Shown: positions 17,594 through 45,540 of the stretch, in pieces
How positions within the stretch are numbered: position 1 is the stretch's first letter
Layout: each line of letters opens with the position of its first letter
Assembly (NCBI GenBank): GCA_964387845.1
Contig: CAYLXA010000005.1
Span: 96,001-160,000, forward strand
DNA: 64,000 bases
Reading direction: 5' to 3'
From: an uncultured bacterium
GTDB lineage: Bacteria; Omnitrophota; Omnitrophia; Omnitrophales; Abzuiibacteriaceae
Notes under the pieces: generated by a model
Database searches by the model: none
Seen by the model: only the letters and a program-made list of their open reading frames with translations
Told to the model about the DNA's origin: nothing
Program-made: the position numbers and the translations under genes

Positions 17594-17667
17594 GCTTCAA
17601 GCTGCAGGCTGCAAGCCACAAGCTTAAAGCTTTTAGCCTGGAGCCTGAGGCTTGTAGCTTGTAGCAA
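17593..17667. repeat. REP-like GC-rich palindromic repeat, copy A
   Basis: 'gagcttcaagctgcaggctgcaagcc...gcctgaggcttgtagcttgtagc' is built from gcttg(a/t)agc / ctgcagc units. Related copies occur at 35.6, 37.6 and 45.5 kb. Confidence 0.6.
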
Positions 17668-29700: not shown

Positions 29701-29715
29701 ACTTTGAGGTGTGAT

Positions 29716-31350: not shown

Positions 31351-31359
31351 GTTTGATCA

Positions 31360-31392
31360 AGGGACAGTCCCATTTGGGACTGTCCCTTTTTA
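31360..31392 (+). terminator. Rho-independent terminator of groEL2
   Basis: Stem 'agggacagtccca/tgggactgtccct' followed by TTTTT. Confidence 0.8.
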
Positions 31393-31394
31393 CT

Positions 31395-31434
31395 AATGTA
31401 ATAAATTACATTAAATAATGTAATTTATTACATT
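31395..31434. repeat. Perfect 18 nt inverted repeat at the left island boundary
   Basis: 'aatgtaataaattacatt' - 'aaat' - 'aatgtaatttattacatt'. Confidence 0.7.
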
Positions 31435-31453
31435 GATATAATCAGCCTTATTT

Positions 31454-32485
31454 TCAGCTCAAGCCCGCTTCGAACGACAACGTTTCTCGCTTCAATTCCT
31501 TTCGCAATTCTTTTTCCGTAGGCAGGTATAACTTATACTTTGACGCAAAGATTTGCTTACTTCCTTTCGGAAGCGTGTAGCGTACGACCGCTTCCTTCTT
31601 ATCCTCGCACAAAATAAGGCCCACTGTCGGCTGGTCGGTTTTTTGTTTCAACTCGCGGTCATAGTAATTCACATACATTTGCATTTGACCGATGTCTTGA
31701 TGAGTTAGTTTTCCGATTTTCAAATCAATCAGCACAAAGCACCTGAGCAGCGTGTTATAGAAAACCAGATCGATATAGAAATGATCCCCATCAAGTGTGA
31801 TCCTTTTCTGCCGGGCGACAAACGTAAATCCTTTTCCCAGCTCGAGCAAGAACTTGGAAAGATTATCAATCAGCGCTTGCTCCAGTTTGCTTTCATACAG
31901 CTTCGGGTTGGATTCAAGGCCGGTAAATTCCAGAACGTACGGATCTTTAATCATGTCCGTGTAAGTTCGAAGGTCCTGGCCTTTCTTGGCTAATTTGAAG
32001 AGCCCTTTCTTATCTTTGCTTAAAGAAAGCCGTTCAAAAAGCAGGGAACCCTTTTGACGCTCCAATTCCCGGACTGACCAATTGTTTTTGACACATTCAA
32101 TTTCATAAAAGGAGCGTGCCTCCGGTCGTTCGACGCGCATTAAAATCCGGTAATGTGTCCAGCTCAATTCGTGACGCAGTGCGTCACGAATTGGGAAGGT
32201 AAGATAAAACTGACGAATATATCGCAAATTCGAATCATCAAAGCCTCTCCCAAAATCTCTTGTTAGTTTTTCCGAAAGCGACTTCAATAACGTCTCACCG
32301 TAAGTGGCACGTTTTTGGCCTTTTTGTTCTTCTTCCACAATTTCACGGCCGATTAACCAATAGGCCTGCACCATTTCGGTGTTGACGGTACGCGCAATGT
32401 TGGAACGTGCCGATTCTATGATCTGACGGATTTTGGAATAGACTTGGTCTTGCTTTGAGTTTTTCTTTTGAACTTCTTGCGGCAT
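31454..32485 (-). CDS. DUF1016 / YhcG-like PDDEXK nuclease-domain protein
   Basis: '...ARTVNTEMVQAYWLIGREIVEEEQ...' has the YhcG/DUF1016 architecture, with an N-terminal helical part and a C-terminal PD-(D/E)xK-like part. Confidence 0.7.
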   Translation of the reverse strand: MPQEVQKKNSKQDQVYSKIRQIIESARSNIARTVNTEMVQAYWLIGREIVEEEQKGQKRATYGETLLKSLSEKLTRDFGRGFDDSNLRYIRQFYLTFPIRDALRHELSWTHYRILMRVERPEARSFYEIECVKNNWSVRELERQKGSLLFERLSLSKDKKGLFKLAKKGQDLRTYTDMIKDPYVLEFTGLESNPKLYESKLEQALIDNLSKFLLELGKGFTFVARQKRITLDGDHFYIDLVFYNTLLRCFVLIDLKIGKLTHQDIGQMQMYVNYYDRELKQKTDQPTVGLILCEDKKEAVVRYTLPKGSKQIFASKYKLYLPTEKELRKELKRETLSFEAGLS

Positions 32486-32814
32486 GAGTAATTTGCCCTC
32501 CCTTTTTTGGTAGCCCTTCCGCCTTTTGGCTTCAGGACGATGCTTCTAACTGCGTGAAGCATCGGGCAAATCACTTAATGTGGTGTCTTTATGCGATGAT
32601 CGCAACCCTGTCCCAGCGCCACTTTGAAACAAAAACTTGTTTCTAATCAAAGCGCTGGACTGGACTCATTTCCTATAGACCGAACGGTTCCATTAATGAA
32701 AATGAGTCCTGGTACTGCTTGATGCGAGAGTGAAGGATATCATATGTCCGGTCCGTATCAAAATGATTTTTTTCAGTTAAATTAATCCCGAAAGGGTATA
32801 TTTTATTAATTCGA

Positions 32815-32918
32815 GTTAAATATTATACCTTATAAGGTATAATATTTTTAAATTATACCAAAAAAGGTATAATATTTTACTAAAGTAGTTGATATTATAC
32901 CCTTAATGGTATACTATT
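32815..32918 (+). promoter_or_regulatory. Three TATACC-N5/6-GGTATA operator palindromes upstream of hipB
   Basis: 'tataccttataaggtata', 'tataccaaaaaaggtata' and 'tatacccttaatggtata'. The third overlaps the first in-frame ATG. Confidence 0.6.
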
Positions 32919-32923
32919 CTGCC

Positions 32924-33145
32924 ATGGATTACATTGGAGAAGAAATTCAAAATTTGCGTAAAAGAGCAGGGCTCACTCAACGAGAATTCGCGAAGCGAGT
33001 GGGTGTGGGGCTTAGATTTATTCGTGATCTTGAACAAGGAAAATCTACCGTACGGCTTGATAAGGTAAATCAGGTGCTTGAATTTTTAGGGCATCATTTG
33101 GAGATTGTTGCCAACCGTGAACGAAAAAATATTCAGAAAAGCTAG
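32924..33145 (+). CDS. hipB: XRE-family HTH protein, HipB-like
   Basis: 'LRKRAGLTQREFAKRVGVGLRFIRDLEQGK' is a Cro/C1-type HTH. It is the first gene of a three-gene hip operon. Confidence 0.75.
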   Translation: MDYIGEEIQNLRKRAGLTQREFAKRVGVGLRFIRDLEQGKSTVRLDKVNQVLEFLGHHLEIVANRERKNIQKS

Positions 33146-33461
33146 AGTTAACTACAAAGATGAACTTGCCGGTTATTTACAAGAAACCGAGAATGGTTTT
33201 CAATTTCTGTATGATGAAAATTATTTGCGTTCCGGCGGACAGCCAATTTCTGTGTCACTTCCTTTAACGAATGAGCCTTACGAATCAAAAGAGCTTTTTA
33301 GTTTCTTCCGCGGACTTTTGCCGGAAGGTTGGTACCTCGATATCGTGAGTGCGGCTAAGAAAATCGATACCAATGATTCTTTCGGCCTGCTTCTGGCTAC
33401 CACAGGCGACACGATCGGCGCAGTGACCGTATATCCAATCCGGGAAAGCGATGAGTCCTAA
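33117..33461 (+). CDS. hipS: HipS-like protein (stand-alone HipA N-terminal subdomain)
   Basis: About 115 aa, similar to HipA N-terminal subdomain 1. The start is uncertain (GTG at 33117 or TTG at 33105). It overlaps the next gene by 11 nt. Confidence 0.6.
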   Translation: MNEKIFRKARVNYKDELAGYLQETENGFQFLYDENYLRSGGQPISVSLPLTNEPYESKELFSFFRGLLPEGWYLDIVSAAKKIDTNDSFGLLLATTGDTIGAVTVYPIRESDES

Positions 33462-34311
33462 TCTGTTTGAAGAAATGTTTGGCACGAGCGAAGCTCCTAC
33501 AATCCCACTTTCGTTGAAGGATGTTCCTCTTCAAGCGCAAGTGATGGCGGGGTATATGTCCATTTCAGGGGTGCAGCCAAAATTGGTGCTGAAATTGGAT
33601 AAGCGTAAAAATGAGCTGACGGTGGCTCAGACGGATGGTGAATATATTTTAAAACCGCAAATCCCGCATTTCCCCCAGACGCCCGAAAATGAAAACTGCT
33701 GTATGGATATCGCTCAGGCGTTTGAGATTGAGGTGCCGCCCCATTGCCTTCTTCCACTGAAAGACGGAAGCCTGGCTTATGCGGTGAAGCGTTTCGATCG
33801 TGTGAGCGGCGAAAAAATCAATCAAGAAAGCTTTTATCAAATTCTTGAAAAAAGAGACAAATATATGGGCTCTCTGGAACAAATCGGTAACAGCCTGAAA
33901 CAAATTTCCGTAGTGCCGGGCCTGGATGTTCAGCTTTTCTTTGAATTAGTCGTTTTCAATTTTCTGATCGGCAATGGTGACGCGCATTTTAAAAATTACT
34001 CCATTTCTTATTTAAAGGATGGCATCCGGCTTTCTCCGGCCTATGATCTGGTTTGTTCCAAGCTGGTGATTCCGGGCGATTCGGATTCCGCACTCACGAT
34101 CAATGGCAAGAAGAATAATCTTAGGCGGGGCGATTTTGATGTGTTGGCTGCTTATTTAAAAATTCCGGAAAAGGTTCGTTACGATAAGTTTGCAGGTCAG
34201 CTTGGAAAAATGGAGCAATTGATTCGAGCCAGCCAACTCTCGGCAGATTTTAAAAAGACGTTTATTCAAATAGTTTCTTCACGTTTTGATCGGCTTAAAT
34301 TGGTGAATTAA
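33451..34311 (+). CDS. hipT: HipT-like Ser/Thr kinase toxin (HipA C-terminal kinase domain)
   Basis: 'LIGNGDAHFKNYSI' is the catalytic motif and 'SPAYDLVCS' is also present. At 286 aa it lacks the HipA N-terminal subdomain, which is supplied separately. Confidence 0.7.
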   Translation: MSPNLFEEMFGTSEAPTIPLSLKDVPLQAQVMAGYMSISGVQPKLVLKLDKRKNELTVAQTDGEYILKPQIPHFPQTPENENCCMDIAQAFEIEVPPHCLLPLKDGSLAYAVKRFDRVSGEKINQESFYQILEKRDKYMGSLEQIGNSLKQISVVPGLDVQLFFELVVFNFLIGNGDAHFKNYSISYLKDGIRLSPAYDLVCSKLVIPGDSDSALTINGKKNNLRRGDFDVLAAYLKIPEKVRYDKFAGQLGKMEQLIRASQLSADFKKTFIQIVSSRFDRLKLVN

Positions 34312-34480
34312 GCGCGCTGAGCCCGGCACGATTAGAACAGGTACCAAAACATTACAAAGTAGTTAATCTAATTTCCTTATATTCACAGTTAAAATATGTA
34401 TATTTATATACATATATATGTATTGAATAGTACATTTATATGTATATAATAATACATATTATATTTGACATTAACACTTT

Positions 34481-34909
34481 TTGAGGGTAGATTTTCTCGT
34501 ACCGGAGGAAGCTGAATATACTAGATTAGTCAAATTTATGACCGCGGCCGGCTATAAACAAGTGACAGGCTATGGTTGGCAGAAAAAAGGAGAGGCAATC
34601 ATTTTTGATCTTTATGTCGGTAATTCGGTTTATTCAACGGAATTATTGTCATCGCCGCTTGAAAAAGGCGGCCATCAGAAATTGAAGGAATGGAATAAAA
34701 TTTATTTAGGTGCTTTAAATCCGGTAGATCTGATTATTTCAAAAATGTTTCGCGGCAGCGAAGTGGATGTCCAGGACAGTTTAGCGTTACTCAAGCATGA
34801 GAAAATTAGTATTGAGGAATTAAAGAAACGATACATCAAAACAGCCAAATATGATGTAAGCGAAGACAGGGTATTGAAAAATTTAGATACATTACTCAGG
34901 AGGCTTTAA
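34481..34909 (+). CDS. Hypothetical protein, first gene of an uncharacterised two-gene module
   Basis: The ORF begins at a TTG, with an alternative ATG at 34538. An AT-rich palindromic promoter region lies upstream. No confident family was assigned. Confidence 0.5.
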   Translation: MRVDFLVPEEAEYTRLVKFMTAAGYKQVTGYGWQKKGEAIIFDLYVGNSVYSTELLSSPLEKGGHQKLKEWNKIYLGALNPVDLIISKMFRGSEVDVQDSLALLKHEKISIEELKKRYIKTAKYDVSEDRVLKNLDTLLRRL

Positions 34910-34911
34910 TC

Positions 34912-35583
34912 ATGGATAAAAGTGATTTGTTGGACCAATTGGCTCAGCATGGCTATTCATTGATGAAGCCAAAATCAGCCGAGCCGGCCGAAAAACTGCT
35001 GGAGGCATTGCTGAAGCAGGATGATGCGCGTCTTTTGGAGGGCTTTCCGGTGGTGTTGGCCAACGCGTTTGACCAAAAAGACGGCTTGACGTGGGAAAAT
35101 CCTAAATGGAATGCTGAGGAATGGCAGGGAAAAAACAGAAGAAAATTGGTGGCCATGCTGTCTTTTAGTTATTATTTGTTTCGTTTATTTGGATTGGCGG
35201 AGTCTGAAAAGAAAGTTTTAGATTTGGTCAAGAAATTAAAAGGGGATAAAACGCTTCTTCATTTAACCGAATCTTTTGCGGAGTCCAAAGAAGTAGACTT
35301 GGACGGTGTCTCGCTATCAACGGAAAGATTAAAAAGCGCTTTCCGCCAATATGTATTAACGTCGGATCAAGGCGACGAAGTCGAAAAAAAGAAACGCGCG
35401 TTGGAATTAGAGCTGCTGCTTTCCGAACTGTTCAGCACGCGGCAAAAAGAACTGCTTGAGAAGCGGCTTGGTGGGGAGGAATTCACCAAAACAGAGCGTG
35501 AATACTATTACCGCGTCGTCAAAAAACGCTTGAAAGCGCTCGCGAGTGACGAACTTCACCAGATGGCCCGTTCGTTGGTTTAG
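34912..35583 (+). CDS. Hypothetical protein, second gene of the two-gene module
   Basis: It starts 3 nt after the upstream gene. The C-terminal 'RQKELLEKRLGGEEFTKTEREYYYRVVKKRLKAL' looks helix-turn-helix-like. Confidence 0.55.
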   Translation: MDKSDLLDQLAQHGYSLMKPKSAEPAEKLLEALLKQDDARLLEGFPVVLANAFDQKDGLTWENPKWNAEEWQGKNRRKLVAMLSFSYYLFRLFGLAESEKKVLDLVKKLKGDKTLLHLTESFAESKEVDLDGVSLSTERLKSAFRQYVLTSDQGDEVEKKKRALELELLLSELFSTRQKELLEKRLGGEEFTKTEREYYYRVVKKRLKALASDELHQMARSLV

Positions 35584-35595
35584 GGCGGGGGGTGT

Positions 35596-35633
35596 GGCTT
35601 GAAGCTTGAAGCTTGTAGCCTGCAGCCCACAAT
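35596..35633. repeat. REP-like repeat, copy B
   Basis: 'ggcttgaagcttgaagcttgtagcctgcagcc'. Confidence 0.6.
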
Positions 35634-36020
35634 CCTATCCGCCGAGCCTTACCCCTTACCCCTAAGTTTCAATCTGGACACAAAGCTTTTTGAGGCATAA
35701 ATCCTACTTAAATTGTGCCTGTACCTGTCCACCAAAATGATGCCTGGCACCTTTCTGTTAAGGATTCATATGCAACTCCTTTTTCCTGTAACATCAGGAT
35801 ATCAGGTGTTGCACTAGTAACTTGAACTCAAGCAGGTACCGAAGTAGAAATCCACTTCCTATCCGCTATACGTTGTTCGCGAACCAATAAAATAGTTGTT
35901 GAAATATAATATAAAGATTGTAAAATAATTACCTCACGCAAACAGTAAACCCCTCTCACGCCTTCACGCGCAAAATCAAACTAATTTCGTAATGCGTTCA
36001 CAAGAAAGGCGGATTTGCCA

Positions 36021-36809
36021 ATGAAAAAAGAAAAACTCATTTCTCAGAGGGATGGTTTACCAATTCGTTCAAGCGGTCCTTGGATCCGCAAAAAACATCA
36101 CTATTTAATCAGATATGCTGACATATTTACCCGAGGGATGAAGAACAAATGGGAATTGACGTACCTTGATCTTTTTGCCGGGCCCGGATGCTGCTTAATT
36201 GAGAAAGAGATGATCGAATTAGCCGGATCTCCGTTACTTGCATTAGGTTTTGATTTTAGGAAATACATTTTTATTGAACAGGATCATGATGACCTTGAAG
36301 CATTGAAACAGCGGTGCTCAAAATCACCAAAACTAAGCCAGATTCAATTCATAGAAGGGGATTGTAATAAGAATATTGATCAAATTCGATTGACGGGATT
36401 AACGCTGGCTTTTATCGATCCAACTGGTATTGACGTTCATTTTGAAACGATTAAACGACTCACCTCTTTAGGGCCGGTGGACCTGCTAATAAACATACCA
36501 TTTCACATTGATATCAAGCGCAACTTCACGAAGTATATAAAAACCCAACATAAAAAATTGGATCTCTTTCTTGGCGGTAAGGTACCGTGGGATAAATTGC
36601 ATCAAGAAAGGGATGTTTTAGAGTTATACAAAAAGCGAATAAAGGATTTGGGGTATCAAACCGTAGAATACAGCGACATAGTTGTCAGTAATACAAACAA
36701 AGTTCCTATGTACTTTCTTTTCTTTGCGTCCAAGCATTCGCGTGGTGTAGAATTCTGGAAGAAAATTACCAAGAAAGACGAAACCGGACAACTGGAGTTA
36801 GAACTCTAA
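36021..36809 (+). CDS. Three-Cys-motif partner protein TcmP family (MTase-like fold)
   Basis: '[11 protein letters not shown]' resembles SAM-binding motif I. 'FIDPTG' sits in the place of a DPPY-like motif. The gene is adjacent to a Gp37/Gp68 (DUF5131) gene, which is the defining context of TcmP. Confidence 0.6.
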
Positions 36810-36811
36810 GA

Positions 36812-37570
36812 ATGAGCGATAAATCAAATATCGAATGGACCGACGCGACATGGAATCCGGTAACGGGATGCAATAAAATCAGCCCCGGATGTAAAAACTG
36901 CTACGCCGAAACTTTCGCTGAGCGCTGGCGGGGAATTCCGGGCCATCCCTACGAACAGGGTTTTGACCTCAGATTATGGCCTGAGCGTGTCGGCTTGCCA
37001 TTATCGTGGAAAGAGCCGCGGATGATTTTTGTCAATTCCATGTCTGATCTTTTTCATAAAGATGTTCCGGATGACTTTATAGGGAAAGTATTTGAAACGA
37101 TGCTCAAAGCTAATCAGCATACTTTCCAGGTTCTGACCAAGCGGCCTGAGCGCATGGTTGAATGGACCAAGAAAACATTCGGCAATCAAAAATTACCGCG
37201 TCATATCTGGCTTGGTGTTTCGGTTGAAAACCAGGATTACGTATGGCGAATCATGTATCTTCAGCAAACACCGGCTCAAATCCGTTTTCTTTCGGTTGAG
37301 CCTCTTTTGGGGCCTGTTGTTTTAAAATCTTCAAATTTAAAAGGCATTCATTGGGTGATCGTGGGTGGCGAGAGCGGACACAGAGCCCGTCCTATGAATC
37401 CCGACTGGGCGCGTGATATCCGCAATCAATGCGAAAAATATGGCGTCGCTTTTTTCTTCAAACAATGGGGCGCTTTTAACGCGAAAGGCGAACGCGTTGG
37501 TAAAAAAGCCGCCGGCCGGGTTCTCGACCGCAGAACCTGGAACGAAATGCCAATTACAATCCCCGCCTAG
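36812..37570 (+). CDS. Phage Gp37/Gp68 family protein (DUF5131), three-Cys motif
   Basis: The N-terminus '[27 protein letters not shown]' is the family signature and includes a CX6CX2C motif. Confidence 0.7.
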
Positions 37571-37596
37571 AATCCATCTCTCGTGGTTTAAACGAG

Positions 37597-37625
37597 AAGC
37601 TTGTAGCCTGTAGCTTGCAGCTTAT
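37597..37625. repeat. REP-like repeat, copy C
   Basis: 'gaagcttgtagcctgtagcttgcagc'. Confidence 0.55.
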
Positions 37626-37744
37626 CATCATGATATAATTCCTATCGCGACGGCGCCCACATTGACCGCCGCGTGATGGCACTTGCGCCAGCGTTACCGC
37701 AGGTGCCTGCGAACGAAGTGACGCAGAATAAAGCGCAAGTGTCT

Positions 37745-38092
37745 ATGTCCGACATCAAGAAACTCACCGAAAAGATCAAGCAATTCCGCGACGAACGGGA
37801 TTGGAAGCAATTCCACAACCACAAAGATATGGCACTTTCACTTGTTCTTGAAGCCGCTGAACTTTTAGAACATTTCCAGTGGAAAACATTGGATGAAGTT
37901 GAAAAGCACGTGAAAACCTCAAAAGAGGATGTTTCAGATGAGCTTGGCGATGTCGCGATCTATCTTTTCGAGCTCGCCGATAACTTAGGGATAGACCTAT
38001 CAGAAGCGGTAGAAAGCAAGCTTCTTAAGAATGCCAGAAAATATCCTATACAAAAATCTAAAGGCACCATAACCAAGTACAATCAATTGTAA
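37745..38092 (+). CDS. MazG-like nucleotide pyrophosphohydrolase (all-alpha NTP-PPase)
   Basis: 'ERDWKQFHNHKDMALSLVLEAAELLEHFQWK...ELGDVAIYLFELAD' is the MazG/dCTPase-like EExxE/D signature. Confidence 0.7.
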   Translation: MSDIKKLTEKIKQFRDERDWKQFHNHKDMALSLVLEAAELLEHFQWKTLDEVEKHVKTSKEDVSDELGDVAIYLFELADNLGIDLSEAVESKLLKNARKYPIQKSKGTITKYNQL

Positions 38093-38099
38093 AGATTAA

Positions 38100-38876
38100 A
38101 TGCCCGGCAATGAATCTGCAGTAATAAAGTATTTGTTCAGAAATAAGAATCGTCTCGAGTTACCTCATTTAGGTTTAATAAAATCAATTGGGTTTCCAAA
38201 TGGACTCACAAATAACTACAAAGAAATAAAAAATGAAAATGAAATTTTAGAATGTTGCTCAGACAATGCTCGAAAAAAAGCAGATGTCTATATTAATGGG
38301 CAAGGCGTATCAATAAAACAATCAGGAGGAAGTTTTTCTTTTAATCGTTTGCAGCGTGCCGAGTTAATAGAAGTTTTTGCTAGTTTAATTTTTGATGCCC
38401 CTCATAATGTTTTAACTCAATTAGATAAAGAAGTTGAAAAATTTCATTTTGGAAAATTATCAGGACGTGGTAGGCCGTGGAAAGATTTTTTCTCAAATAA
38501 AGAATTTTATGCTTTAACAAATGCTCTTATGATGTTGCAATCTCCAAATTATGGACTTTCTCTTCATCCCGCTAAATTTATTCTGGAGGCTTCAAAAAAT
38601 TTAACAACCAATCCGAGTTTAAAAGTTTATACTTTTGATGAATATTTTGAACGTTATAACGAGTTTTTCAGGATTGCTATAAGACGTGTTTGGTTGGGGC
38701 AGAATAGTAAATCTGAGCATGGCCGTGCAAAAAGTCTAATAGCAAAACCTGAGAATGCAACCTGGGTCTTTAATACAATTTCCGGAACGCCAAGAAGTGG
38801 TTGGAAAGTTGATTTTCCAAAGTCGGAAAGAAGAACTGTGTATTATTTGATGATAGAAAAAGTAAATTCAAAATGA
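38100..38876 (+). CDS. Hypothetical protein, putative type II restriction endonuclease by context
   Basis: Very AT-rich, with no family recognised. It directly precedes vsr and overlaps it by 4 nt, upstream of the dcm-type methyltransferase. Confidence 0.4.
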   Translation: MPGNESAVIKYLFRNKNRLELPHLGLIKSIGFPNGLTNNYKEIKNENEILECCSDNARKKADVYINGQGVSIKQSGGSFSFNRLQRAELIEVFASLIFDAPHNVLTQLDKEVEKFHFGKLSGRGRPWKDFFSNKEFYALTNALMMLQSPNYGLSLHPAKFILEASKNLTTNPSLKVYTFDEYFERYNEFFRIAIRRVWLGQNSKSEHGRAKSLIAKPENATWVFNTISGTPRSGWKVDFPKSERRTVYYLMIEKVNSK

Positions 38877-39301
38877 CATTTGTATTTCAAACGACAAGTC
38901 AACGCTCCGAGTTAATGAAAAAGATTAAAGGAGTTAACACTAAGCCAGAAATTGCTTTTGCAAAGAAACTTGAATTATACAAAGTCAAGTTTAGAAAACA
39001 TTTTAAAAAACTCCCTGGAGTACCGGATTTTGCTATTTTGAGAGGTAGAGTAGCGGTGTTTATCGATGGGGAGTTTTGGCATGGATACAATTGGGTTAAT
39101 AAAAAGAAAAGGATAAGATCCAACCGACAATACTGGATTAAAAAAATAGAAAGAAATATACTAAGAGATTCGATAAATATGAGAGAATTAAAGAAAATAG
39201 GTTGGTATCCTTTAAGATTTTGGCAGCATGAAGTTGTTGCTGAGGGTGATAAATGTATAAAGAAAATCGAAAAAATAATGCAGCGACGAAGTTCAAAATA
39301 G
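38873..39301 (+). CDS. vsr: Very-short-patch-repair endonuclease
   Basis: 'KPEIAFAKKL...PGVPDFAILRGRVAVFIDGEFWHG'. Confidence 0.85.
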   Translation: MTFVFQTTSQRSELMKKIKGVNTKPEIAFAKKLELYKVKFRKHFKKLPGVPDFAILRGRVAVFIDGEFWHGYNWVNKKKRIRSNRQYWIKKIERNILRDSINMRELKKIGWYPLRFWQHEVVAEGDKCIKKIEKIMQRRSSK

Positions 39302-40383
39302 CATCTTTTTTTGCTGGCTGTGGCGGCCTAGATTTAGGTTTCCAGCAAGCGGGCTTTGATGTTGTTTGGGCAAATGAATACGATAAAACAATTTGGGCTA
39401 CCTACGAACACAACCATCCTCATACGTTTTTATGCAAGAAATCTATTATCGATGTCAAATCAGATGAAATTCCAACTGTTGTTGGCATGATAGGTGGCCC
39501 GCCATGCCAAAGCTGGAGTTTAGCCGGAGCCATGAGGGGAGTAAAAGACCCGCGAGGTAAACTTTTTTATGAATACATAAGAATCTTGGCCGATAAACAA
39601 CCATCATTTTTCTTAGCCGAAAATGTTGCGGGCATTGTTTCTAGCACTCATGTGAATTCATTTGAAAATATCCTTAAAAAATTCGAAGAAATTGGTTACG
39701 TTACTTCATATAAATTGCTTGATGCAAAATCCTACGGCGTTCCTCAGGATCGGAAAAGAGTTATCATTGTAGGGTATTCTAAAGGTTTACATAAGAAATT
39801 TGAATTCCCGCAAGAAACTCATGGTGTAAATTCAGCGAATGGCGACTTATTCAAGCCACATTTAAAACCCTATGAAACTTTACGCTCTGCAATTGACGAT
39901 TTGCCTAATCCGGTGCCTGCTAGTTTGAAAAATAAGTCGAACAGCAGAATTCGTATTCCAAATCACGAATATATGACAGGAGGTTTTTCTACCATTTACA
40001 TGTCACGAAATAGGAGAAGAAATTGGAATGAGCCTTCATTTACAATTCAGGCGGGAGGCCGGCATGCACCGCTACATCCATCAAGCACTGAAATGATTAA
40101 AAAAGAGCCAGATTGGTGGGTATTTAAAAAGAAAGACAAAAAGGCTTATCGGCGAATGTCGGTAAGAGAATGCGCACGAGTTCAAACCTTCCCTGATAAA
40201 TTCATATTCAAATATGATTCAATTGCGGATGGTTATAAAATGGTTGGTAATGCAGTTCCCGTCGAGTTGGCGCGTGTTATAGCATTAAGAATAAAGTCAG
40301 ATTTGATACCAGAGAAAAATAATCTTAAAAGATCATCCCTTCGCAAAACACCCTATTCCGAATTGGTGTTAGCTTCCTCATAA
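39253..40383 (+). CDS. dcm: DNA (cytosine-5)-methyltransferase
   Basis: Motif I 'FAGCGGLDLGF', motif IV 'GGPPCQSWS' and 'ENV'. The start is uncertain and overlaps the vsr 3' end. Confidence 0.9.
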   Translation: MYKENRKNNAATKFKIASFFAGCGGLDLGFQQAGFDVVWANEYDKTIWATYEHNHPHTFLCKKSIIDVKSDEIPTVVGMIGGPPCQSWSLAGAMRGVKDPRGKLFYEYIRILADKQPSFFLAENVAGIVSSTHVNSFENILKKFEEIGYVTSYKLLDAKSYGVPQDRKRVIIVGYSKGLHKKFEFPQETHGVNSANGDLFKPHLKPYETLRSAIDDLPNPVPASLKNKSNSRIRIPNHEYMTGGFSTIYMSRNRRRNWNEPSFTIQAGGRHAPLHPSSTEMIKKEPDWWVFKKKDKKAYRRMSVRECARVQTFPDKFIFKYDSIADGYKMVGNAVPVELARVIALRIKSDLIPEKNNLKRSSLRKTPYSELVLASS

Positions 40384-40424
40384 ACCGTAAACTGGACACC
40401 GTCCGGCAGAAAAAAGGTTGTTGA

Positions 40425-41540
40425 ATGAGGCAAATATTCATAGTAGTGGCAGGAGGCAATGCTGCTGCTGATCGTCACTTCGAAGATACAATCCAACGTA
40501 AACGTACCTTAGATGAAGTGCGGCAATTTCTATCTTCCCAAGAAATTCATGAGATCGAATCAGTTTATCATACAGCACCTTTTATTGTCTGGGGCGCTAT
40601 TCCCGGCCCAATGAATATTCCGCGTTGGCAAAGTATGCGTGTTGGCGATATTGTTTTGATTTACACAAGAGGACATATCCGATTAATTGGCGAAGTGGCA
40701 TCAAAAGTAAGAAGTAATTCGTTGGCTCGCTATTTTTGGAAAGAAACACCCGAAAACAAAACCTGGGAATTGATTTATTTTATTGTAAATGAACAAAGGG
40801 TAAATATACCGATGCCTTTATTAAATGAAGCGCTTGGTTATAGCGCAAGTTACTCTCCGAGGGGATTTAGTTCTGTCGATTCTGATAAGGTCAAATCATT
40901 CGTTAATCGTTATGGCGATATATTCGAAGGGCTTAAAACACTCAGTAAAGGCGAGAAACTAATCGAAATTTCGCCAGCGAAAAAGTTAGAAGTCCAACAG
41001 GTTGAAGAAAAGATTGAACAATCATCGAATGAGCATGACGAAATGCAATGGCGGTTAATTAGATTGGGCAAATTGTCAAGGTACGATGTTTGGGTTCCCA
41101 GAAATGATCAAGGGCACAGCTTTGGAGGTCAACGATTTCGGGATTTTGTGTTGCCGGAATTCCACGAGAGTTTAGATGTTCCACCCAGTATTAAAAATAT
41201 CGATGTCGTGTGGAAATTTGGTCCTTATTCGATCACATCTGCATTTGAAGTCGAACATTCAACATCCGTTTATTCAGGAATTTTAAGGCTTTCGGATCTG
41301 AGAACCGAAACACCGAATTCACAATACCCACTTTTTATTGTTGCTGACGAAGCAAGAAAGCGGAAGGTATTTTCGGAACTTGCGCGCCCCACTTTCTCAA
41401 ATCCCTTTTTGCGACTTCACGAAGTAATACGATTTTTGAGTTACGAAAGAATCAGGGACATTGATGAAAAGTATAAGCAAGAACCTGAATTTGAACCGCA
41501 AATACTCTTTACTGCCGGAGAAACTTTCGAGAAAAATTAA
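40425..41540 (+). CDS. PUA/EVE-like N-terminal domain fused to a putative PD-(D/E)xK nuclease. Candidate modification-dependent (type IV-like) restriction enzyme.
   Basis: The N-terminus 'VGDIVLIYTRGHIRLIGEV' is EVE/PUA-like. The C-terminus 'IDVVWKFGP...AFEVEHS' is (D/E)xK-like. Confidence 0.5.
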   Translation: MRQIFIVVAGGNAAADRHFEDTIQRKRTLDEVRQFLSSQEIHEIESVYHTAPFIVWGAIPGPMNIPRWQSMRVGDIVLIYTRGHIRLIGEVASKVRSNSLARYFWKETPENKTWELIYFIVNEQRVNIPMPLLNEALGYSASYSPRGFSSVDSDKVKSFVNRYGDIFEGLKTLSKGEKLIEISPAKKLEVQQVEEKIEQSSNEHDEMQWRLIRLGKLSRYDVWVPRNDQGHSFGGQRFRDFVLPEFHESLDVPPSIKNIDVVWKFGPYSITSAFEVEHSTSVYSGILRLSDLRTETPNSQYPLFIVADEARKRKVFSELARPTFSNPFLRLHEVIRFLSYERIRDIDEKYKQEPEFEPQILFTAGETFEKN

Positions 41541-41558
41541 CAAATCGAGGATCTTATC

Positions 41559-41711
41559 ATGATTAAATCAAGAAAATTGAAGGCTGATCTAACCCAGTTA
41601 TTAAATTATCTTTGGCATGACGAGAGAAAACATTATTTGGAGCGGCGAAACAAGAATCATATTTATTTAACAATTCGCAGATTGGCAAAAGAAATTAGTT
41701 ATAAGCCGTAA
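41559..41711 (+). CDS. Small ORF (50 aa), hypothetical
   Basis: 'MIKSRKLKADLTQLLNYLWHDERKHYLERRNKNHIYLTIRRLAKEISYKP'. It is too short for the ORF track and has no family assignment. Confidence 0.2.
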   Translation: MIKSRKLKADLTQLLNYLWHDERKHYLERRNKNHIYLTIRRLAKEISYKP

Positions 41712-41745
41712 ATCGAACGCGTCTCGACGATGTGCGGAAGATATT

Positions 41746-41822
41746 CATTAACCCTCGATAAAAAGAAACTCCTCGCGGAATTCGCGCCCGAGCCCCGCGC
41801 CCACAAATTTCTTGATTTCCAT
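41746..41822. repeat. ~77 bp direct repeat, copy 1 (upstream of the NTase-HEPN pair)
   Basis: 'cattaaccctcgataaaaagaaactcctcgcggaattcgcgcccgagccccgcgcccacaaatttcttgatttccat' is ~90% identical to 43032-43106. Confidence 0.8.
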
Positions 41823-41936
41823 TATAGGGGTAAGGATTAAGGGGTAAGTCGTAAGTTTTAAGTAGAATTATGCTGATAGTCATACCCCATCCCTCCTAAA
41901 CATTCCCCTTGAACATGTTGTAGTTATGTACTACAA

Positions 41937-42533
41937 TTGTTGTACATCATGACAACAAGTTTAATCTTTCAGCTCCAGCAAACCAAGTCGCCGCTCAGGA
42001 AGAAGCTTTTATCGTACTTCTTCACGAATCCCGGGGCGAAGCTCTATCTCAGAGATATCGCGCTCAAACTCCATGTCGATCCCGCGAATCTTTCGCGCGA
42101 GCTCAAGCGGCTCACCGATGAAAGTGTTTTTGTTGCCCAGAAGCAGGGTAATCTCAAATATTTCTCTTTGAATCCAAAGCACGCCTTATATGAAGAATTT
42201 AAGTCCATGATTTTTAAGACCATCGGCGCTCAAGGCGCGATTGAAAACCTGTTAAGTAAAATCCCGGGAATTAAACGCGCTTTTATTTATGGTTCGTTTG
42301 CCAAAAATACGGAGCGTGCGGATTCCGATATCGACCTTTGTATGATCATCCAAAAAAAAGAATTCAAAGAAAATCCTTTCCTTGAGGGAATTCATAAACT
42401 CGAAGGTGAACTTGGCAGGGAAATCAATTATACTTTCTTTACCGACGAAGAATGGCAGTCCAAGCAGCGATCTAAAGATAGCTTTGTCACCGGAATTCTT
42501 AAGAATAAAAAAATCGATCTCATGCATATATGA
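41937..42533 (+). CDS. wHTH-fused minimal nucleotidyltransferase (MNT-like)
   Basis: The N-terminal HTH 'LYLRDIALKLHVDPANLSRELKRL' and the NTase motif 'IYGSFAKN...DSDIDLCMI'. Confidence 0.7.
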   Translation: MLYIMTTSLIFQLQQTKSPLRKKLLSYFFTNPGAKLYLRDIALKLHVDPANLSRELKRLTDESVFVAQKQGNLKYFSLNPKHALYEEFKSMIFKTIGAQGAIENLLSKIPGIKRAFIYGSFAKNTERADSDIDLCMIIQKKEFKENPFLEGIHKLEGELGREINYTFFTDEEWQSKQRSKDSFVTGILKNKKIDLMHI

Positions 42534-42994
42534 AAAAAATTGATCTTCAAGATTTAATTCAAGAAGGGCAGCTTCAAGAAGAGCCAGGTATCGGCTGGGA
42601 CCAGGTGGAGCGTTTAATTAAACGGGCATTTGAAGATTTGAAATCAGCCGACCGGAACATGTCCTTTGATGAGCCGGGCGCGATGGATTTTATCTATAAG
42701 GCGATGTTTCATGCTGGGAACGCTTTGATTCGTTCATATGGGTTTAGGCCGGGCGCTACCAGACAGCATCAAGGTGTGATTACGGCAGTTGGGCGGATCT
42801 TGGGCGTTGAATCAAAGGCGCTGATTCTGAAATTTGATAAACTCAGGAAACGCCGCAATGAGTTTGAATATCAGGGCATTTTTGCGATGGGAAGAGAAGA
42901 GTTGAAAGATTCCATCGAACAAGCCAAACAATTGGTTGGCGTGATACGAAAAGCACTCGAAGATTCTCATCCACAAAAGCAGTTTAAATGGTAA
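42530..42994 (+). CDS. HEPN-like protein partnered with the NTase
   Basis: An all-alpha ~150 aa protein overlapping the NTase gene by 4 nt. It carries 'RKRRNEFEY' where the Rx4-6H motif would sit, but the His is not evident. Confidence 0.5.
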   Translation: MKKIDLQDLIQEGQLQEEPGIGWDQVERLIKRAFEDLKSADRNMSFDEPGAMDFIYKAMFHAGNALIRSYGFRPGATRQHQGVITAVGRILGVESKALILKFDKLRKRRNEFEYQGIFAMGREELKDSIEQAKQLVGVIRKALEDSHPQKQFKW

Positions 42995-43031
42995 GCGAAG
43001 ACCATAAAGACGGCGCCGGGCACCTGCTACT

Positions 43032-43106
43032 CATTAACACTCGATAAAAAGAAGCTCCTCGCGGAATTCGCGACGAACCCCGCGCCCACAAATTTCTTGA
43101 TCTCCA
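43032..43106. repeat. ~77 bp direct repeat, copy 2 (upstream of higBA)
   Basis: 'cattaacactcgataaaaagaagctcctcgcggaattcgcgacgaaccccgcgcccacaaatttcttgatctccat'. Confidence 0.8.
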
Positions 43107-43315
43107 TCAAAGTTATATATACTATTCACCATAGTAAATAAGCATTAACCCCCTCCTCGCTCAAAGTATTAAATTCTCCAAGCTTCCTCCACATAAAGTC
43201 TCTTTTTTCACTTGCGCTTTATGCGCAAGTACCATCTCTCGAGGCTCAAAGTTAGCCTCGTATTGCTAGGCCGCGTAAACTATGGTTGACACTGTGTAGC
43301 ATATAGGGTACACTT

Positions 43316-43645
43316 ATGATGACTTGGAAAATTTTGCATTACCGGAGGCGCGACGGAAGGATTCCTTTCCAAGAATGGTTTTCCGAATTTTACGATGCTC
43401 GGGTTTGCGCTAGAATTCAATCACGGATTCACAGGTTAGAGCGTGGTAACTTTGGAGATTCAAAGAGCGTAGGTGATGGGCTCTTCGAGTTACGATTTCA
43501 CTTTGGGCCCGGCTATCGCATTTATTATGGAATTCGTCACGGCCGGATTGTTATTTTGCTTTGCGGGGGCGACAAAAGTAGTCAGCAAAAAGATATTCAA
43601 ATAGCAAACGTATATTGGCAGGATTATTTGGAGAGTCAACTATGA
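43316..43645 (+). CDS. higB: RelE/ParE-superfamily toxin, HigB-like addiction-module killer protein
   Basis: 'WKILHYRRRDGRIPFQEWF...GDGLFELRFHFGPGYRIYYG'. Confidence 0.8.
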   Translation: MMTWKILHYRRRDGRIPFQEWFSEFYDARVCARIQSRIHRLERGNFGDSKSVGDGLFELRFHFGPGYRIYYGIRHGRIVILLCGGDKSSQQKDIQIANVYWQDYLESQL

Positions 43646-43953
43646 GACGATATAAACCGTATGTAGATCATCAGGAATGGTTGTTGAAATCATTAAAGGA
43701 TCCTGAGATGGCTTCTGAATATCTAAATGCCGTGCTAGAAGAGGGTGATAAGCAATTATTTTTGATGGCACTCAAAAATGTGGTGGACGCGCAAGGTGGG
43801 ATGACAAAGATGTCGGATAAATCTAAAATCAATCGTGTGAGCCTTTACAAAATGCTCTCAAAGAACGGAAACCCCGGCTTTGAAAATATTTTGAGATTAC
43901 TTCAAATTGCCGGCATTCGTTTTCGGGTGACACCGCAATCTCGTAGGAAATAA
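43642..43953 (+). CDS. higA: HigA-family addiction-module antidote protein (HTH)
   Basis: 'LNAVLEEGDKQLFLMALKNVVDAQGGMTKMSDKSKINRVSLYKMLS'. It overlaps the higB stop (ATGA). Confidence 0.8.
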   Translation: MRRYKPYVDHQEWLLKSLKDPEMASEYLNAVLEEGDKQLFLMALKNVVDAQGGMTKMSDKSKINRVSLYKMLSKNGNPGFENILRLLQIAGIRFRVTPQSRRK

Positions 43954-43965
43954 TTGCTGCACACT

Positions 43966-44046
43966 CACGCTTGATGCGTGAGTGCTAAATCCGTAGAGAA
44001 ACCACAAGTTTCTCACGGATAATACTTGCACATAGGTGCAAGTGCA
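43966..44046. repeat. Three consecutive hairpins at the right island boundary
   Basis: 'cactcacgc-ttgat-gcgtgagtg', 'atccgtagagaaac-cacaa-gtttctcacggat' and 'cttgcac-atag-gtgcaag'. Confidence 0.5.
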
Positions 44047-44060
44047 TCCGCGCGGCGTGG

Positions 44061-44089
44061 TTGACAATCCACACCTAATTCTGTATGAT
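44061..44089 (+). promoter_or_regulatory. Sigma-70-like promoter (TTGACA, 17 nt spacer, TATGAT)
   Basis: 'ttgacaatccacacctaattctgtatgat'. Confidence 0.4.
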
Positions 44090-44159
44090 ACTTCATCGGT
44101 GCACGAAGTATTGAATTACAGATGTAAAACCCACCGATTAGTTCAATTAATCCAAGTAA

Positions 44160-44285
44160 AAATTCAAAATCTAAATATCAAAATTCAAAACAATTATTAA
44201 ATTCCAAATTCAAAACGTTTTGAAATTTAATATTTGTAATTTGAATTTGTTTTATGTTTTGATATTTGAATTTTGAAATTATATT
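44160..44285. repeat. AT-rich palindromic element upstream of the guaB-like gene
   Basis: It contains 'ttcaaaatctaaatatcaaaattcaaaaca', which shares a 27-mer with 29632-29661, plus inverted copies. Confidence 0.55.
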
Positions 44286-44297
44286 TGAGGAGCAAAA

Positions 44298-45458
44298 ATG
44301 AGCGAGTGGATCGGACGAGATAGAAAAGCAAGGCGTGCATACGGTTTTGATGAAATTGCGTTGTCCCCCGGAAATCTGACCATTAATCCCGACGAAGTTG
44401 ACATCAGTTTTTATATCGATAAAAAGAAATTCGAAATTCCGTTTATTGCCTCCGCGATGGACGGTGTGGTGGATCCTAAGTTCGCGGTCGCGATGGGCAA
44501 AATGGGCGGCCTCGCGGTGCTTAATCTCGAAGGCATCTACACCCGCTACGACAATTATCAAGAAATCTTAGACGATATTGCCAAAGCCACGCCTGAAAAA
44601 GCCACTGAGCTGGTTCAGAAACTCTACGTGGAACCGGTCAAAGAAAAACTAATCTCAAAACGCATTCAGGAAATCAAGAAAGCCAAAGTACCTGCCGCTG
44701 TGAGTTCCATTCCGCAAAAAGCGGAGAAGTACGGCAAAATCGCCGAAGAAGCCGGCTGTGATGTGTTTGTGGTTCAATCGACCGTCACCACGGTTCGCCA
44801 CATCGCGAAAGCGTACAAAACCCTCGAATTCGAAAAGTTCTGCAAAGCGATGAAGATTCCCGTCATTCTCGGAAATTCCGTGACGTATCAAGTGGCGGTT
44901 GAACTCATGACGGCCGGCGCGGACGGACTCTTAGTCGGCATCGGTCCGGGATCGGCTTGCACGACCCGCGGCGTGTTGGGCCTCGGTGTTCCGCAGGTGA
45001 CCGCGATTTGTGATTCCGCAGCCGCGCGCGAATTTTATTACAAAAAGTCAGGACGCTACGTTCCGATCATCGCAGACGGCGGTATGTCCACGGGCGGCGA
45101 TATTTGCAAAGCATTCGCTTGCGGATCTGATGCCGTGATGGTGGGTTCCGCTTTTGCCCGCGCCAAGGAAGCGCCGGGGAAGGGATTCCATTGGGGCATG
45201 GCCACACCGCACGCCAATTTGCCGCGCGGCACACGCATTCGCGTCGGCACGACGGGAACTTTGCAGGAAATTATGTTCGGCCCCGCGAAATTGGATGACG
45301 GCACGCAAAATTTAGTCGGCGCACTTAAAACCTGCATGGGCAACATCGGCGCCCGCACGGTCAAGGAAATGCAAATGGCCGAAATCGTGATTGCGCCTGC
45401 GATTAAAACGGAAGGAAAGCTCTTTCAAGCGGCTCAAAAAGTTGGAATGATGAAATAA
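44298..45458 (+). CDS. IMP dehydrogenase / GMP reductase family protein without a CBS subdomain (GuaB3-like)
   Basis: '[15 protein letters not shown]' is the catalytic Cys loop, and the TIM barrel is of IMPDH type. The gene is immediately upstream of guaA. Confidence 0.8.
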
Positions 45459-45469
45459 CTTAATATTCG

Positions 45470-45540
45470 GGCTTCATGCTGCATGCTACAAGTTACAAGC
45501 TGCAGGTTTGAAGCTTGGAGCCTGAAGCCTGTAGCTTTGA
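45470..45540. repeat. REP-like repeat, copy D
   Basis: 'gcttcatgctgcatgctacaagttacaagctgcaggtttgaagcttggagcctgaagcctgtagc'. Confidence 0.55.

Follow-up and report, generated by a model that had tools for sequence, protein, structure and literature searches.

Direct repeats around an HTH-NTase/HEPN module in an Omnitrophota island: probable diverged copies of a SRAP gene 5′ end

The DNA analysed here is a 64-kb stretch (the window) of a Candidatus Omnitrophota genome, in which a low-GC toxin-antitoxin/defence island of 12.6 kb (31355–43955) lies between groEL and guaB3. The island encodes YhcG, a split HipA, a DUF6036 NTase, DUF5131, a MazG-like gene product, Vsr, Dcm, and a 371-aa unknown protein, and it also contains a pair of direct repeats, an HTH-nucleotidyltransferase (NTase)/HEPN module, and a higBA cassette. 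The groEL-guaB3 interval is a hypervariable hot spot; each related strain carries different, unrelated toxin-antitoxin/defence cargo there, without any gene for SRAP (SOS-response-associated peptidase; YedK/HMCES-type). A Pfam search of the ORFs of the 12.6-kb island revealed no recombinase or transposase families. The right end of the island is marked by the native hairpins A, B, and C (43962–44045, + strand), which are conserved in relatives and lie upstream of the guaB3 promoter (44061–44089).

The HTH-NTase gene (41949–42533, + strand) is MNT-type antitoxin-like, and its form in the protein collection has 194 aa from the ATG at 41949. It overlaps by 4 nt with the toxin-like HEPN-domain gene (42530–42994, + strand). 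Pfam places Polbeta/NTP_transf_2 at 41937–42533 and HEPN at 42530–42994, which is the layout of HEPN/MNT type II pairs, and the two genes are predicted to form a toxin-antitoxin module. Relatives of this module occur in other genomic contexts with 74–81% nucleotide identity, and their homology spans 41907/41916 to 42984/42994 only, a unit of 1.08 kb that begins at the promoter of the module and ends with the HEPN gene. This promoter (TTGAAC-17-TACAAT) overlaps a palindromic operator-like sequence, TTGTAG..TACAATTGTTGTACA (41907–41948, + strand). Because the homology to relatives is confined to these limits, the repeats lie outside the module. The module with its flanks gave no match in a plasmid collection, a phage collection, or viral contigs. 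Beyond the second repeat copy, a 96-nt spacer (43113–43208) without a match in the loci compared may be the remnant of a second inserted element. It is followed by a REP-like hairpin pair, A′-D′ (43209–43261, + strand), homologous to a unit that a related strain has in its guaB3 leader, and by the higBA-type cassette (43286–43953, + strand). The latter comprises a promoter (43286–43314), higB of the Gp49 family (43316–43645), and a higA-like antidote ORF (43615–43953); the Pfam matches to Gp49 (E=1.7e-7) and then dnstrm_HI1420 (E=3.7e-19) follow the HigBA-type order.

Regarding the repeats themselves, the original prediction described two direct copies of 77 nt with about 90% identity, and a global alignment agrees with this, giving 77 identical positions of 86 (89.5%) on the + strand. 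The limits were refined to 41742–41827 for copy 1 (86 nt) and 43028–43112 for copy 2 (85 nt), and the copies differ by eight substitutions and one 1-nt indel at 41787. Alignment also confirmed that the flanking DNA is unrelated on both sides of both copies, and the predicted spacing holds: copy 1 ends about 115 nt upstream of the NTase ORF (TTG 41937; ATG 41949), and copy 2 ends about 209 nt upstream of higB (ATG 43316). The near-palindrome noted earlier, CGCGGAATTCGCG, is likewise present in both copies, and its coding-frame translation is Ala-Glu-Phe-Ala. A search of the 64 kb for two conserved blocks of the repeat (33 nt and 30 nt, at most three mismatches) matched these two sites only, and 100 shuffles gave no match. 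An independent Logan assembly (L016) is 100% identical to the window over 42700–43820; therefore, the junction of HEPN, copy 2, and higB is not an assembly artefact. Identical sequence occurs in sequencing run SRR15237815. No copy of the repeat occurs in eight loci of related strains. Degenerate-codon patterns were scanned as well: DKKKLLAEFA had no match in viral, genome, and metagenome collections, and NPAPTNFLI and MCGRYSLTxDK had none in viral contigs. Thus, these three scans yielded neither a third repeat copy nor an empty site in the public collections scanned. A 20-nt inverted repeat (41565–41584 against the right end of the repeat) was dropped, being estimated at chance level in AT-rich DNA.

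The repeats are most likely diverged copies of the first ~33 codons of a SRAP gene on the + strand, an assignment predicted from sequence and supported by ~20 residues. The original prediction, which had checked only the minus strand, considered the repeats unlikely to be coding; this view is not supported, as the + strand reads as a SRAP 5′ end with substitutions in codon phase. Copy 1 forms a SRAP pseudo-5′ end (41730–41827, + strand), in which an ATG at 41730 and codons 1–4 (MCGR) precede the repeated unit at 41742–41827. It opens with ATG-TGC-GGA-AGA and reads MCGRYSLT..., so that the translation starts with Met-Cys-Gly-Arg and has the catalytic Cys as its second residue, as SRAP proteins do. 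Positions 1–21 of the Pfam SRAP model (PF02586) align with residues 1–21 of copy 1 (E=0.02–0.03), and a +1 frameshift at 41787 leads to a spurious 36-aa ORF (41730–41840). In copy 2 (43028–43112, + strand), SRAP codons 5 to ~32 form a single open frame (YSLTLDKKKLLAEFATNPAPTNFLISIK) that lacks a start codon, and the right-hand break falls on the same base as in copy 1. Because codons 1–4 are absent, copy 2 is unable to restore the gene. A scan of 185,579 genomes for MCGRYSLTxD returned 37 ORFs, 32 of which encode proteins of ~220 aa with the SRAP layout; the single Omnitrophica protein among them matches SRAP at E=4e-76 and is identical to the repeat fragment at 13 of 19 residues. No duplicated 5′ end was found within 8 kb of any of the 37 other SRAP genes.

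The second half of the repeat is not recognized by SRAP profiles (Pfam or home-built). The NPAPT of copy 2 was considered as the SRAP motif YNIAPT and rejected as a resemblance only, since neither the Pfam nor the home-built SRAP profile reaches it. A complete SRAP domain (~200–220 aa) is absent, with homology ending at about residue 20–33 in the copies, and tblastn with five full SRAPs found no remainder of the gene anywhere in the 64 kb. Both copies are therefore dead pseudogene fragments. Searches of PDB and NCBIfam with the fragment gave chance matches or none, and tblastn of the fragment against plasmids and phages was marginal, the sole plasmid match being a SRAP N-terminus at E=9. Two protein-representative matches to the 36-aa ORF (P0121 and P0122) were uninformative, as these proteins are internally repetitive and their scores are inflated by seven short-motif repeats. 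The idea that the 371-aa gene is naturally followed by SRAP was also rejected, because SRAP or the repeat occurs in none of 44 metagenome loci with relatives of the 371-aa protein.

The divergence pattern of the two copies points to their origin. Counted in the open frame of copy 2, with the 6-nt indel patch and the last three bases excluded, the point differences all fall at codon position 3 (5/5) and are all synonymous in a single continuous frame; the chance of such a phase is (1/3)^5 = 0.004. The copies thus diverged as coding alleles and not in place. In addition, both copies end at the same base with unrelated DNA beyond each, which points to a site-specific breakpoint. Two copies of AGGGGTAAG abut the right edge of copy 1 (41826–41848, + strand); the window contains four matches to this motif against 0.12 expected, it recurs at junctions in the window and in the loci L011–L014, and the copies at the edge of copy 1 could be arm-type recombinase sites.

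Comparison with module relatives elsewhere revealed that, in four of five independent contexts (the window included), direct repeats of a gene end flank the module. The relative in L009 is bracketed by fragments of a tRNA-Met 3′ end with CCA, that in L014 by the 67-nt 5′ end of a CPXCG gene, and that in L183 by the 61-nt 5′ end of a response-regulator gene, whereas the relative in L182 has no bracketing repeat. Repeat lengths across the contexts are 26, 61, 67, and 86 nt. Around the SRAP, CPXCG, and response-regulator genes, the layout consists of a pseudo-5′ fragment, a cassette of 1.3–2.3 kb, and a second 5′ copy, without a recombinase gene; an intact gene follows the second 5′ copy in L014 and in L183, unlike in the window. 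The contexts were gathered by searching for the module, and its presence in all of them is therefore a selection effect. The suggestion that the repeats are recombination-type sites marking a cassette-like insertion of the NTase/HEPN pair gains support from these data, as the module lies strictly between the repeats and similar bracketing occurs in three other contexts.

Our main reading, to which we assign a probability of roughly 55%, is that tandem integration into a SRAP gene, followed by decay like that of CIMEs (cis-mobilizable elements), left the repeats as attL-type junction scars. Circular DNA with the HTH-NTase/HEPN module would have recombined at a fixed point ~98 nt into the SRAP gene, and a second element, now a short remnant, would have recombined earlier at the same point. 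Each incoming element would have brought its own copy of the SRAP 5′ segment, in the manner of integrative elements that target gene ends, leading to the order SRAP 5′ segment (native, with ATG), cassette, SRAP 5′ segment (imported, without ATG), and next element. The recombinase genes, the SRAP remainder, and most of the cargo would later have been lost by deletion, while the self-stabilising toxin-antitoxin operons survived, an outcome resembling CIME-like tandem accretion. In this account, the involvement of a circular intermediate and of a recombinase, and the sequence in which events took place, are what we infer; the data show what the repeat is, how its copies diverged as coding DNA, the limits of the module and its own promoter, similar bracketing elsewhere, and that a recombinase gene (by Pfam, in the island) and the rest of SRAP (in the window) are missing. 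As expected of att-type sites, the direct repeats bracket horizontally acquired DNA in a low-GC region, and the repeat is the target gene's end (SRAP 5′) with divergence in coding phase. Against this expectation, Pfam analysis of the island ORFs identified no tyrosine or serine recombinase gene in the element beside the repeat, and no intact or reconstituted SRAP gene follows copy 2 or occurs elsewhere in the window. Because no recombinase, SRAP remainder, empty site, or third copy was found, the scar model needs at least two integrations and deletions that are not directly visible. The repeats are most likely an ordinary relic of mobile DNA and not a regulatory element. They would have no present regulatory role, and at most, homologous recombination between them could loop out the 1,286-bp cassette.

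Several other explanations share parts of this evidence. RecA, instead of an integrase, may have acted on circular or concatemeric DNA that carried a SRAP 5′ segment beside the module, so that a single homologous crossover produced a Campbell-type insertion-duplication. An island without a recombinase gene suits this explanation, as do repeat lengths that vary among contexts and all exceed the minimal homologous-pairing length, repeats that are diverged alleles as expected of donor and recipient copies, and the lack of conserved element termini beside the repeats in the four contexts. We nevertheless consider it unlikely, since the identical end base of both copies would have to be a coincidence or the re-use of a predefined unit, the L009 repeats are tRNA 3′ ends with CCA (a classical integrase signature), and the first joining of the gene fragment to the module is left unexplained. 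Alternatively, an undescribed mechanism in Omnitrophota and related uncultured bacteria might insert toxin-antitoxin cassettes into the first ~20–30 codons of genes, duplicating 60–90 bp of the target and keeping one intact gene. Such a mechanism would act in trans or via homology arms, leaving no recombinase gene behind; the SRAP repeats would be one decayed example of it, and its recognition site would include AGGGGTAAG. Three unrelated genes (SRAP, CPXCG, and response regulator) with the same picture around relatives of one module, together with the recurrence of AGGGGTAAG at junctions in the window and L011–L014, give this idea some appeal. It is nonetheless quite improbable in our view: the contexts were found via the module search; the termini are not conserved, the duplication length varies, and the duplicated targets have no sequence in common; among the contexts are a tRNA 3′ end and L182, which has no repeat at all. 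An addictive module that survives in decayed islands explains the data, with nothing new needed.

Four further explanations were weighed. A local segmental duplication of a SRAP pseudogene fragment, followed by drift in place, would account for there being just two copies, which share their orientation and right end and are separated by 1.29 kb. It is very unlikely, because five of five synonymous third-position differences are unexpected for non-functional copies drifting in place, and the DNA between them is an imported module that also occurs in other genomic contexts. It is still harder to accept that the repeat belongs to a genome-wide REP/MITE-like family that stands beside the operons by chance. 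REP-like families are indeed present in the genome (a heptad repeat at four sites and several hairpin units), but this repeat has two copies in the 64 kb, none in the eight related-strain loci, no palindromic structure in folding, and a SRAP start codon with codon-phase substitutions. Scarcely any weight can be given to integron attC sites in an integrase-less cassette array (CALIN), although repeats of ~85 bp do separate toxin-antitoxin cassettes that have their own promoters. The RYYYAAC/GTTRRRY pair is absent, the closest sequences being CATTAAC (+) and GTTAATG (−) without a complementary partner at the other end; no end-to-end hairpin forms, and single-stranded DNA folding of copy 1 is not better than that of shuffles; Pfam found no IntI-like gene in the island; and the repeat derives from coding DNA. 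The last of the explanations, in which the two toxin-antitoxin operons share a regulatory module (promoter, operator, or small RNA), had been put forward in the original prediction and is hardly tenable. One copy does stand upstream of each operon with a near-palindrome in each, but the repeat contains no promoter-like site and each operon has its own promoter downstream (41909–41937 and 43286–43314). Module relatives L009, L014, and L183 retain the promoter and operator box without the repeat, and the repeat-to-promoter distances differ between the two operons. Folding is unconvincing on either strand (z-scores of −0.3 and +1.0 for copy 1, about −2.4 for copy 2), with a different structure in each copy; no Rfam family was found at a meaningful score, and the substitutions follow codon phase.

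The reading as junction scars would turn an anonymous repeat into a readable history, in which mobile toxin-antitoxin cassettes landed in a DNA-repair (SRAP) gene that was later destroyed. It would also imply that addictive toxin-antitoxin modules can outlast the elements that deliver them, leaving gene-end duplications behind. A pseudo-5′ fragment, a small cassette, and a second 5′ copy may thereby provide a practical signature for decayed islands in streamlined uncultured genomes that have no integrase. If a dedicated mechanism, instead of survivorship, underlies the pattern, cassettes would have a new way of moving, although the present evidence does not require such a mechanism.

Several known systems can be compared with this locus. 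Hot spots between conserved core genes harbour strain-specific cassettes, as in the minimal mobile elements of Neisseria and in defence-island hot spots. The groEL-guaB3 interval is similar to these, a likeness that concerns the surroundings and not the 85-bp repeats. Campbell-type insertion-duplication proceeds by a single homologous crossover and gives the product A-H-insert-H-B with H in direct orientation. The layout here is the same, but by this route H must already be present on a circular donor, and the identical right breakpoint is unexplained. In the superintegron of Vibrio cholerae, near-identical attC repeats flank higBA, relBE, and parDE cassettes. The locus shares with integron arrays the repeats of ~80–120 bp and ~90% identity between small toxin-antitoxin cassettes with their own promoters, and it differs from them in having no attC consensus ends, hairpin, or IntI and in that the repeat is a gene fragment. 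Integration into a gene end with a substitute end carried by the element is known from islands that target tRNA or tmRNA genes and from the icd gene of E. coli (e14 or phage 21). As with the att repeats of such gene-end islands and prophages, the direct repeats derive from the end of a target gene and bracket imported DNA. In gene-end islands, most differences between the copies are synonymous, one copy having come with the element, and tandem arrays arise via repeated use of one site; both features have their likeness here. The tandem ssrA islands of Dehalococcoides are a further example of gene-end targeting (PMC3146451). Unlike in gene-end islands, the target here is the SRAP 5′ end, there is no recombinase, the imported copy is without a start codon, and the remainder of the target is gone. 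The review PMC5704250, which covers CIMEs and tandem accretion after Pavlovic 2004 and Bellanger 2011, describes a path of decay and accretion along which CIMEs retain attL and attR while their integration genes are lost. CIMEs were defined in streptococci, at gene 3′ ends with an intact target and a demonstrated helper ICE, whereas the window has no intact target, and any helper or mobility here is hypothetical. In its gene layout, the locus is like CIMEs in combining att-type repeats, whose att function here is putative, with cargo, in having no integration or transfer genes, and in its tandem arrangement with another remnant.

Regarding the extent of the repeat, a repeat search, pairwise MAFFT and global alignment confirmed the predicted pair, with copy 1 at 41742–41827 and copy 2 at 43028–43112, both on the + strand. 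In the global alignment, 77 of 86 aligned positions are identical, the remainder being eight substitutions and one 1-nt indel. Searches with two conserved blocks (≤3 mismatches) returned these two sites only within the 64 kb and none in shuffled sequence, and the sequence flanking copy 1 is unrelated to that flanking copy 2. The HEPN–copy 2–higB stretch recurs unchanged in a separate public assembly (L016); scans of large collections gave no second locus with this repeat, and no empty site was found.

The original prediction considered the repeats unlikely to be coding, but only the minus strand had been translated, and the + strand reads as the start of an SRAP-type gene. The ORF holding copy 1 (+ strand, ATG at 41730) reads MCGRYSLTLDKKKLLAEFA..., beginning with Met-Cys-Gly-Arg, which at the very N-terminus is the hallmark of SRAP (YedK/HMCES) proteins. 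Its residues 1–21 align to positions 1–21 of the SRAP Pfam model (E = 0.02–0.03). A scan for MCGRYSLTxD across 185,579 genomes, one per species, yielded 37 ORFs, 32 of which are proteins of ~220 aa with the SRAP layout; the one encoded in an Omnitrophica genome (L069) scores as SRAP at E = 4e-76 and agrees with the copy 1 fragment at 13 of the first 19 residues. As the scanned proteins were chosen via their first ten residues, the independent evidence consists of the Pfam result and residues 11–19 only. The copy 1 fragment bears the SRAP N-terminus but is not an SRAP gene, the family assignment being drawn from about 20 residues and the codon phase of the differences between the copies. Copy 2 forms a single open frame, YSLTLDKKKLLAEFATNPAPTNFLISIK, in which five point differences (41744, 41753, 41768, 41817 and 41823) lie outside a 6-nt indel patch, all of them synonymous and at codon position 3; the chance of five differences sharing that phase is 0.004. 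The remaining differences lie inside the patch (two) and at the very edge (one). This pattern is the strongest line of evidence and holds whatever the family name; it means that the copies separated as alleles while still constrained as coding sequence, to about the distance seen between species, and were joined only afterwards. Both copies are now dead as genes: copy 1 keeps its ATG but carries a +1 frameshift at 41787 that creates a spurious 36-aa ORF, and copy 2 is without codons 1–4; the right ends of the two fall on the same base. The window has no further SRAP-like sequence, and none of 37 other SRAP genes has a duplicated 5′ end, so that SRAP is not established as a general integration target. 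A Dehalococcoidia SRAP gene (L065, 6141–7930) is interrupted after 23 codons by an insertion sequence with a 504-aa transposase on the opposite strand and a 43-nt terminal inverted repeat, a disruption of the ordinary IS type and different from the case in the window. Two metagenome proteins, P0121 and P0122, surfaced as inflated matches to the 36-aa ORF. They are built of tandem units, with ..AFLDIHYHGKD.. present at least seven times and FLELHSGERRRGKVGPEPRCEQ some eight times, and may be translated tandem DNA repeats.

Between the copies, an HTH-nucleotidyltransferase (NTase) gene overlaps a HEPN gene, and copy 2 leads into 96 nt of spacer, followed by a pair of hairpins and then a higBA-type operon. 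The idea of a regulatory module shared by the two operons was not borne out, since no promoter-like site occurs inside the repeat and a separate promoter for each operon lies downstream of the adjacent copy, at 41909–41937 for NTase/HEPN (copy 1) and at 43286–43314 for higBA (copy 2). The hairpins belong to a REP-like family with units A, B, C and D, where A is CACTCACGC..GCGTGAGTG and also has a variant with compensatory stem changes. Such units lie at 43209–43261 and 43962–44045 of the window, at 4414–4470 of L002 and 9585–9710 of L004 (loci of related strains), and at 2514–2569 of the tRNA-associated locus L009, where a B-C unit adjoins a tRNA-Met 3′ fragment. Two A-type hairpins bracket the higBA cassette, and an inserted A-D unit occupies the guaB3 leader of a related strain but not that of the window. 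An AT-rich inverted repeat at 44153–44287 (62-nt arms, 71% complementary, AAATTCAAAA-like units) is located downstream of the guaB3 promoter and just upstream of the guaB3 start codon.

The groEL–guaB3 interval (29704–45458) of this Candidatus Omnitrophota genome contains a 12.6-kb toxin-antitoxin/defence island, with a GC content of 32–45% across 31355–43955 versus roughly 50% for the groEL and guaB3/guaA genes on either side. Its cargo includes YhcG, a split HipA, a DUF6036 nucleotidyltransferase, DUF5131, a MazG-like gene, Vsr, Dcm and family-less proteins, with no recombinase or tRNA gene in 31355–43955. The same interval carries Fic and a small ORF in L004, whose GuaB3 is 97% identical. 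In L001 and L002 it holds a 5′-nucleotidase, a 449-aa protein and a CopG-type pair, and the more distant relatives L007 and L008 have an ECF sigma cluster there. SRAP and the repeat are absent from the interval in all five, indicating that the repeats lie in a hypervariable hot spot to which SRAP is not native. Elsewhere in the island, the split HipA (33105–34311) consists of two overlapping ORFs for the N-terminal and C-terminal domains; ahead of them, at 32822–32920, a 27-nt palindromic box (ATTATACC..GGTATAAT), probably an operator, occurs three times. A 371-aa ORF (40425–41540) that comes after Vsr and Dcm could be placed in no Pfam or NCBIfam family; its relatives, 39 metagenome proteins at 51–69% identity and five at 22–28%, are almost all standalone rather than methylase-adjacent, so the protein may not be the cognate restriction enzyme. 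An intergenic repeat of 7-nt periodicity (AAGCTTG TAGCCTG CAGC...; 13 pattern matches versus 0.05 expected) occurs at 17601–17665, 35599–35626, 37587–37621 and 45478–45535, two of these sites bracketing a gene pair at 36015–37570.

Contexts of the module in other genomes were collected via the 90% cluster of the HEPN protein and relatives of the NTase. At the nucleotide level they match the window solely between 41907/41916 and 42984/42994, a span of promoter, operator and the two genes, which places the repeats outside the module. In L009 and L010, the module is located downstream of a tRNA-Met gene, and in L009 partial tRNA 3′ end copies including CCA bracket it (2568–2593 and 4101–4126). 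In L011–L015, it follows a BrnT/A pair between 67-nt direct repeats (678–744 and 2968–3034 in L014, 94% identical). These comprise the upstream region of a CPXCG zinc-ribbon gene together with its first ten codons; the right copy is the intact gene, and the left has ATC instead of ATG. In L183, an Omnitrophica MAG, the module lies between 61-nt repeats (725–785 and 2278–2338) that correspond to the first part of a response-regulator gene, the right copy once more being the intact gene; a GACAACA heptad array, comparable to the 7-nt periodic repeat of the window, follows the HEPN gene there (1972–2069). No repeat was found at the module in L182. Duplicated gene ends thus flank the module in four of five independent contexts, the window counted, enclosing an islet of 1.3–2.3 kb with no recombinase gene. 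The repeat-flanked contexts have no conserved termini next to the repeats, and the duplicated targets share no sequence. L012 has a further 21-nt repeat (2041–2061 and 2598–2618) around a neighbouring small gene pair. Across L009, L012, L014 and L183, small toxin-antitoxin-like cassettes are each bracketed by direct repeats of 21–67 nt with no recombinase gene nearby; in these other genomes the repeats correspond to the 5′ end of a gene, to an upstream region or to the 3′ end of a tRNA.

We favor, at a probability of about 0.55, the reading that the repeats are attL-type junction scars of site-specific integration into an SRAP gene end, followed by decay and accretion. A circular DNA carrying its own copy of the chromosomal site would have recombined there to give an A-H-cargo-H-... 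layout, which would account for the copies being diverged alleles. That the copies end on the same base before running into unrelated DNA points to a defined crossover and hence to a site-specific recombinase, and repeats of tRNA 3′ ends, as in L009, are the classical signature of such enzymes. As the recombinase, most cargo and the rest of SRAP are absent, the reading requires a decay step in which these were lost; toxin-antitoxin operons are expected to resist deletion. We infer this order of events. A known path leads from integration through decay to a cis-mobilizable element (CIME) keeping attL and attR, at which a further element accretes (PMC5704250).

RecA-dependent Campbell-type insertion would fit the missing recombinase and the variable repeat lengths but leaves the shared breakpoint of both copies unexplained, and we regard it as unlikely. 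Still less probable is a dedicated, undescribed cassette-insertion mechanism. It is suggested by the three 5′-end cases and by a recurring 9-mer, AGGGGTAAG, with four matches in the window versus 0.12 expected, arranged as two tandem pairs: one directly abuts copy 1 (41826–41848, + strand) and the other lies at 35648–35663 on the − strand. The 9-mer also occurs inside 21-nt direct repeats of L011–L014, which bracket the small gene pair in L011–L013. These contexts were, however, picked by way of the module itself, and beyond this motif nothing is conserved at the junctions. In-place duplication of the repeat is contradicted by the codon-phase divergence and is very improbable; hardly any weight is given to a regulatory role (no promoter in the repeat, no Rfam family), to an integron attC site (no attC ends, no hairpin) or to a REP element (just two copies in the window).

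In comparison with known systems, the repeats are members of neither the attC nor the REP family. The predicted cassette-like insertion by recombination is supported in so far as the module lies between the copies and gene-end repeats surround its relatives. The repeats cannot be classed as functional att sites: recombinase and intact target are both absent, and no empty site was found. Tests of three defining features came out negative. The repeats behave like attL-type junctions left by islands that target gene ends, now decayed and accreted. Scars of duplicated gene ends that surround a toxin-antitoxin cassette within a defence hot spot are already known as a kind, of which the SRAP 5′ target and the recurrent 5′-end pattern in Omnitrophota are new instances.
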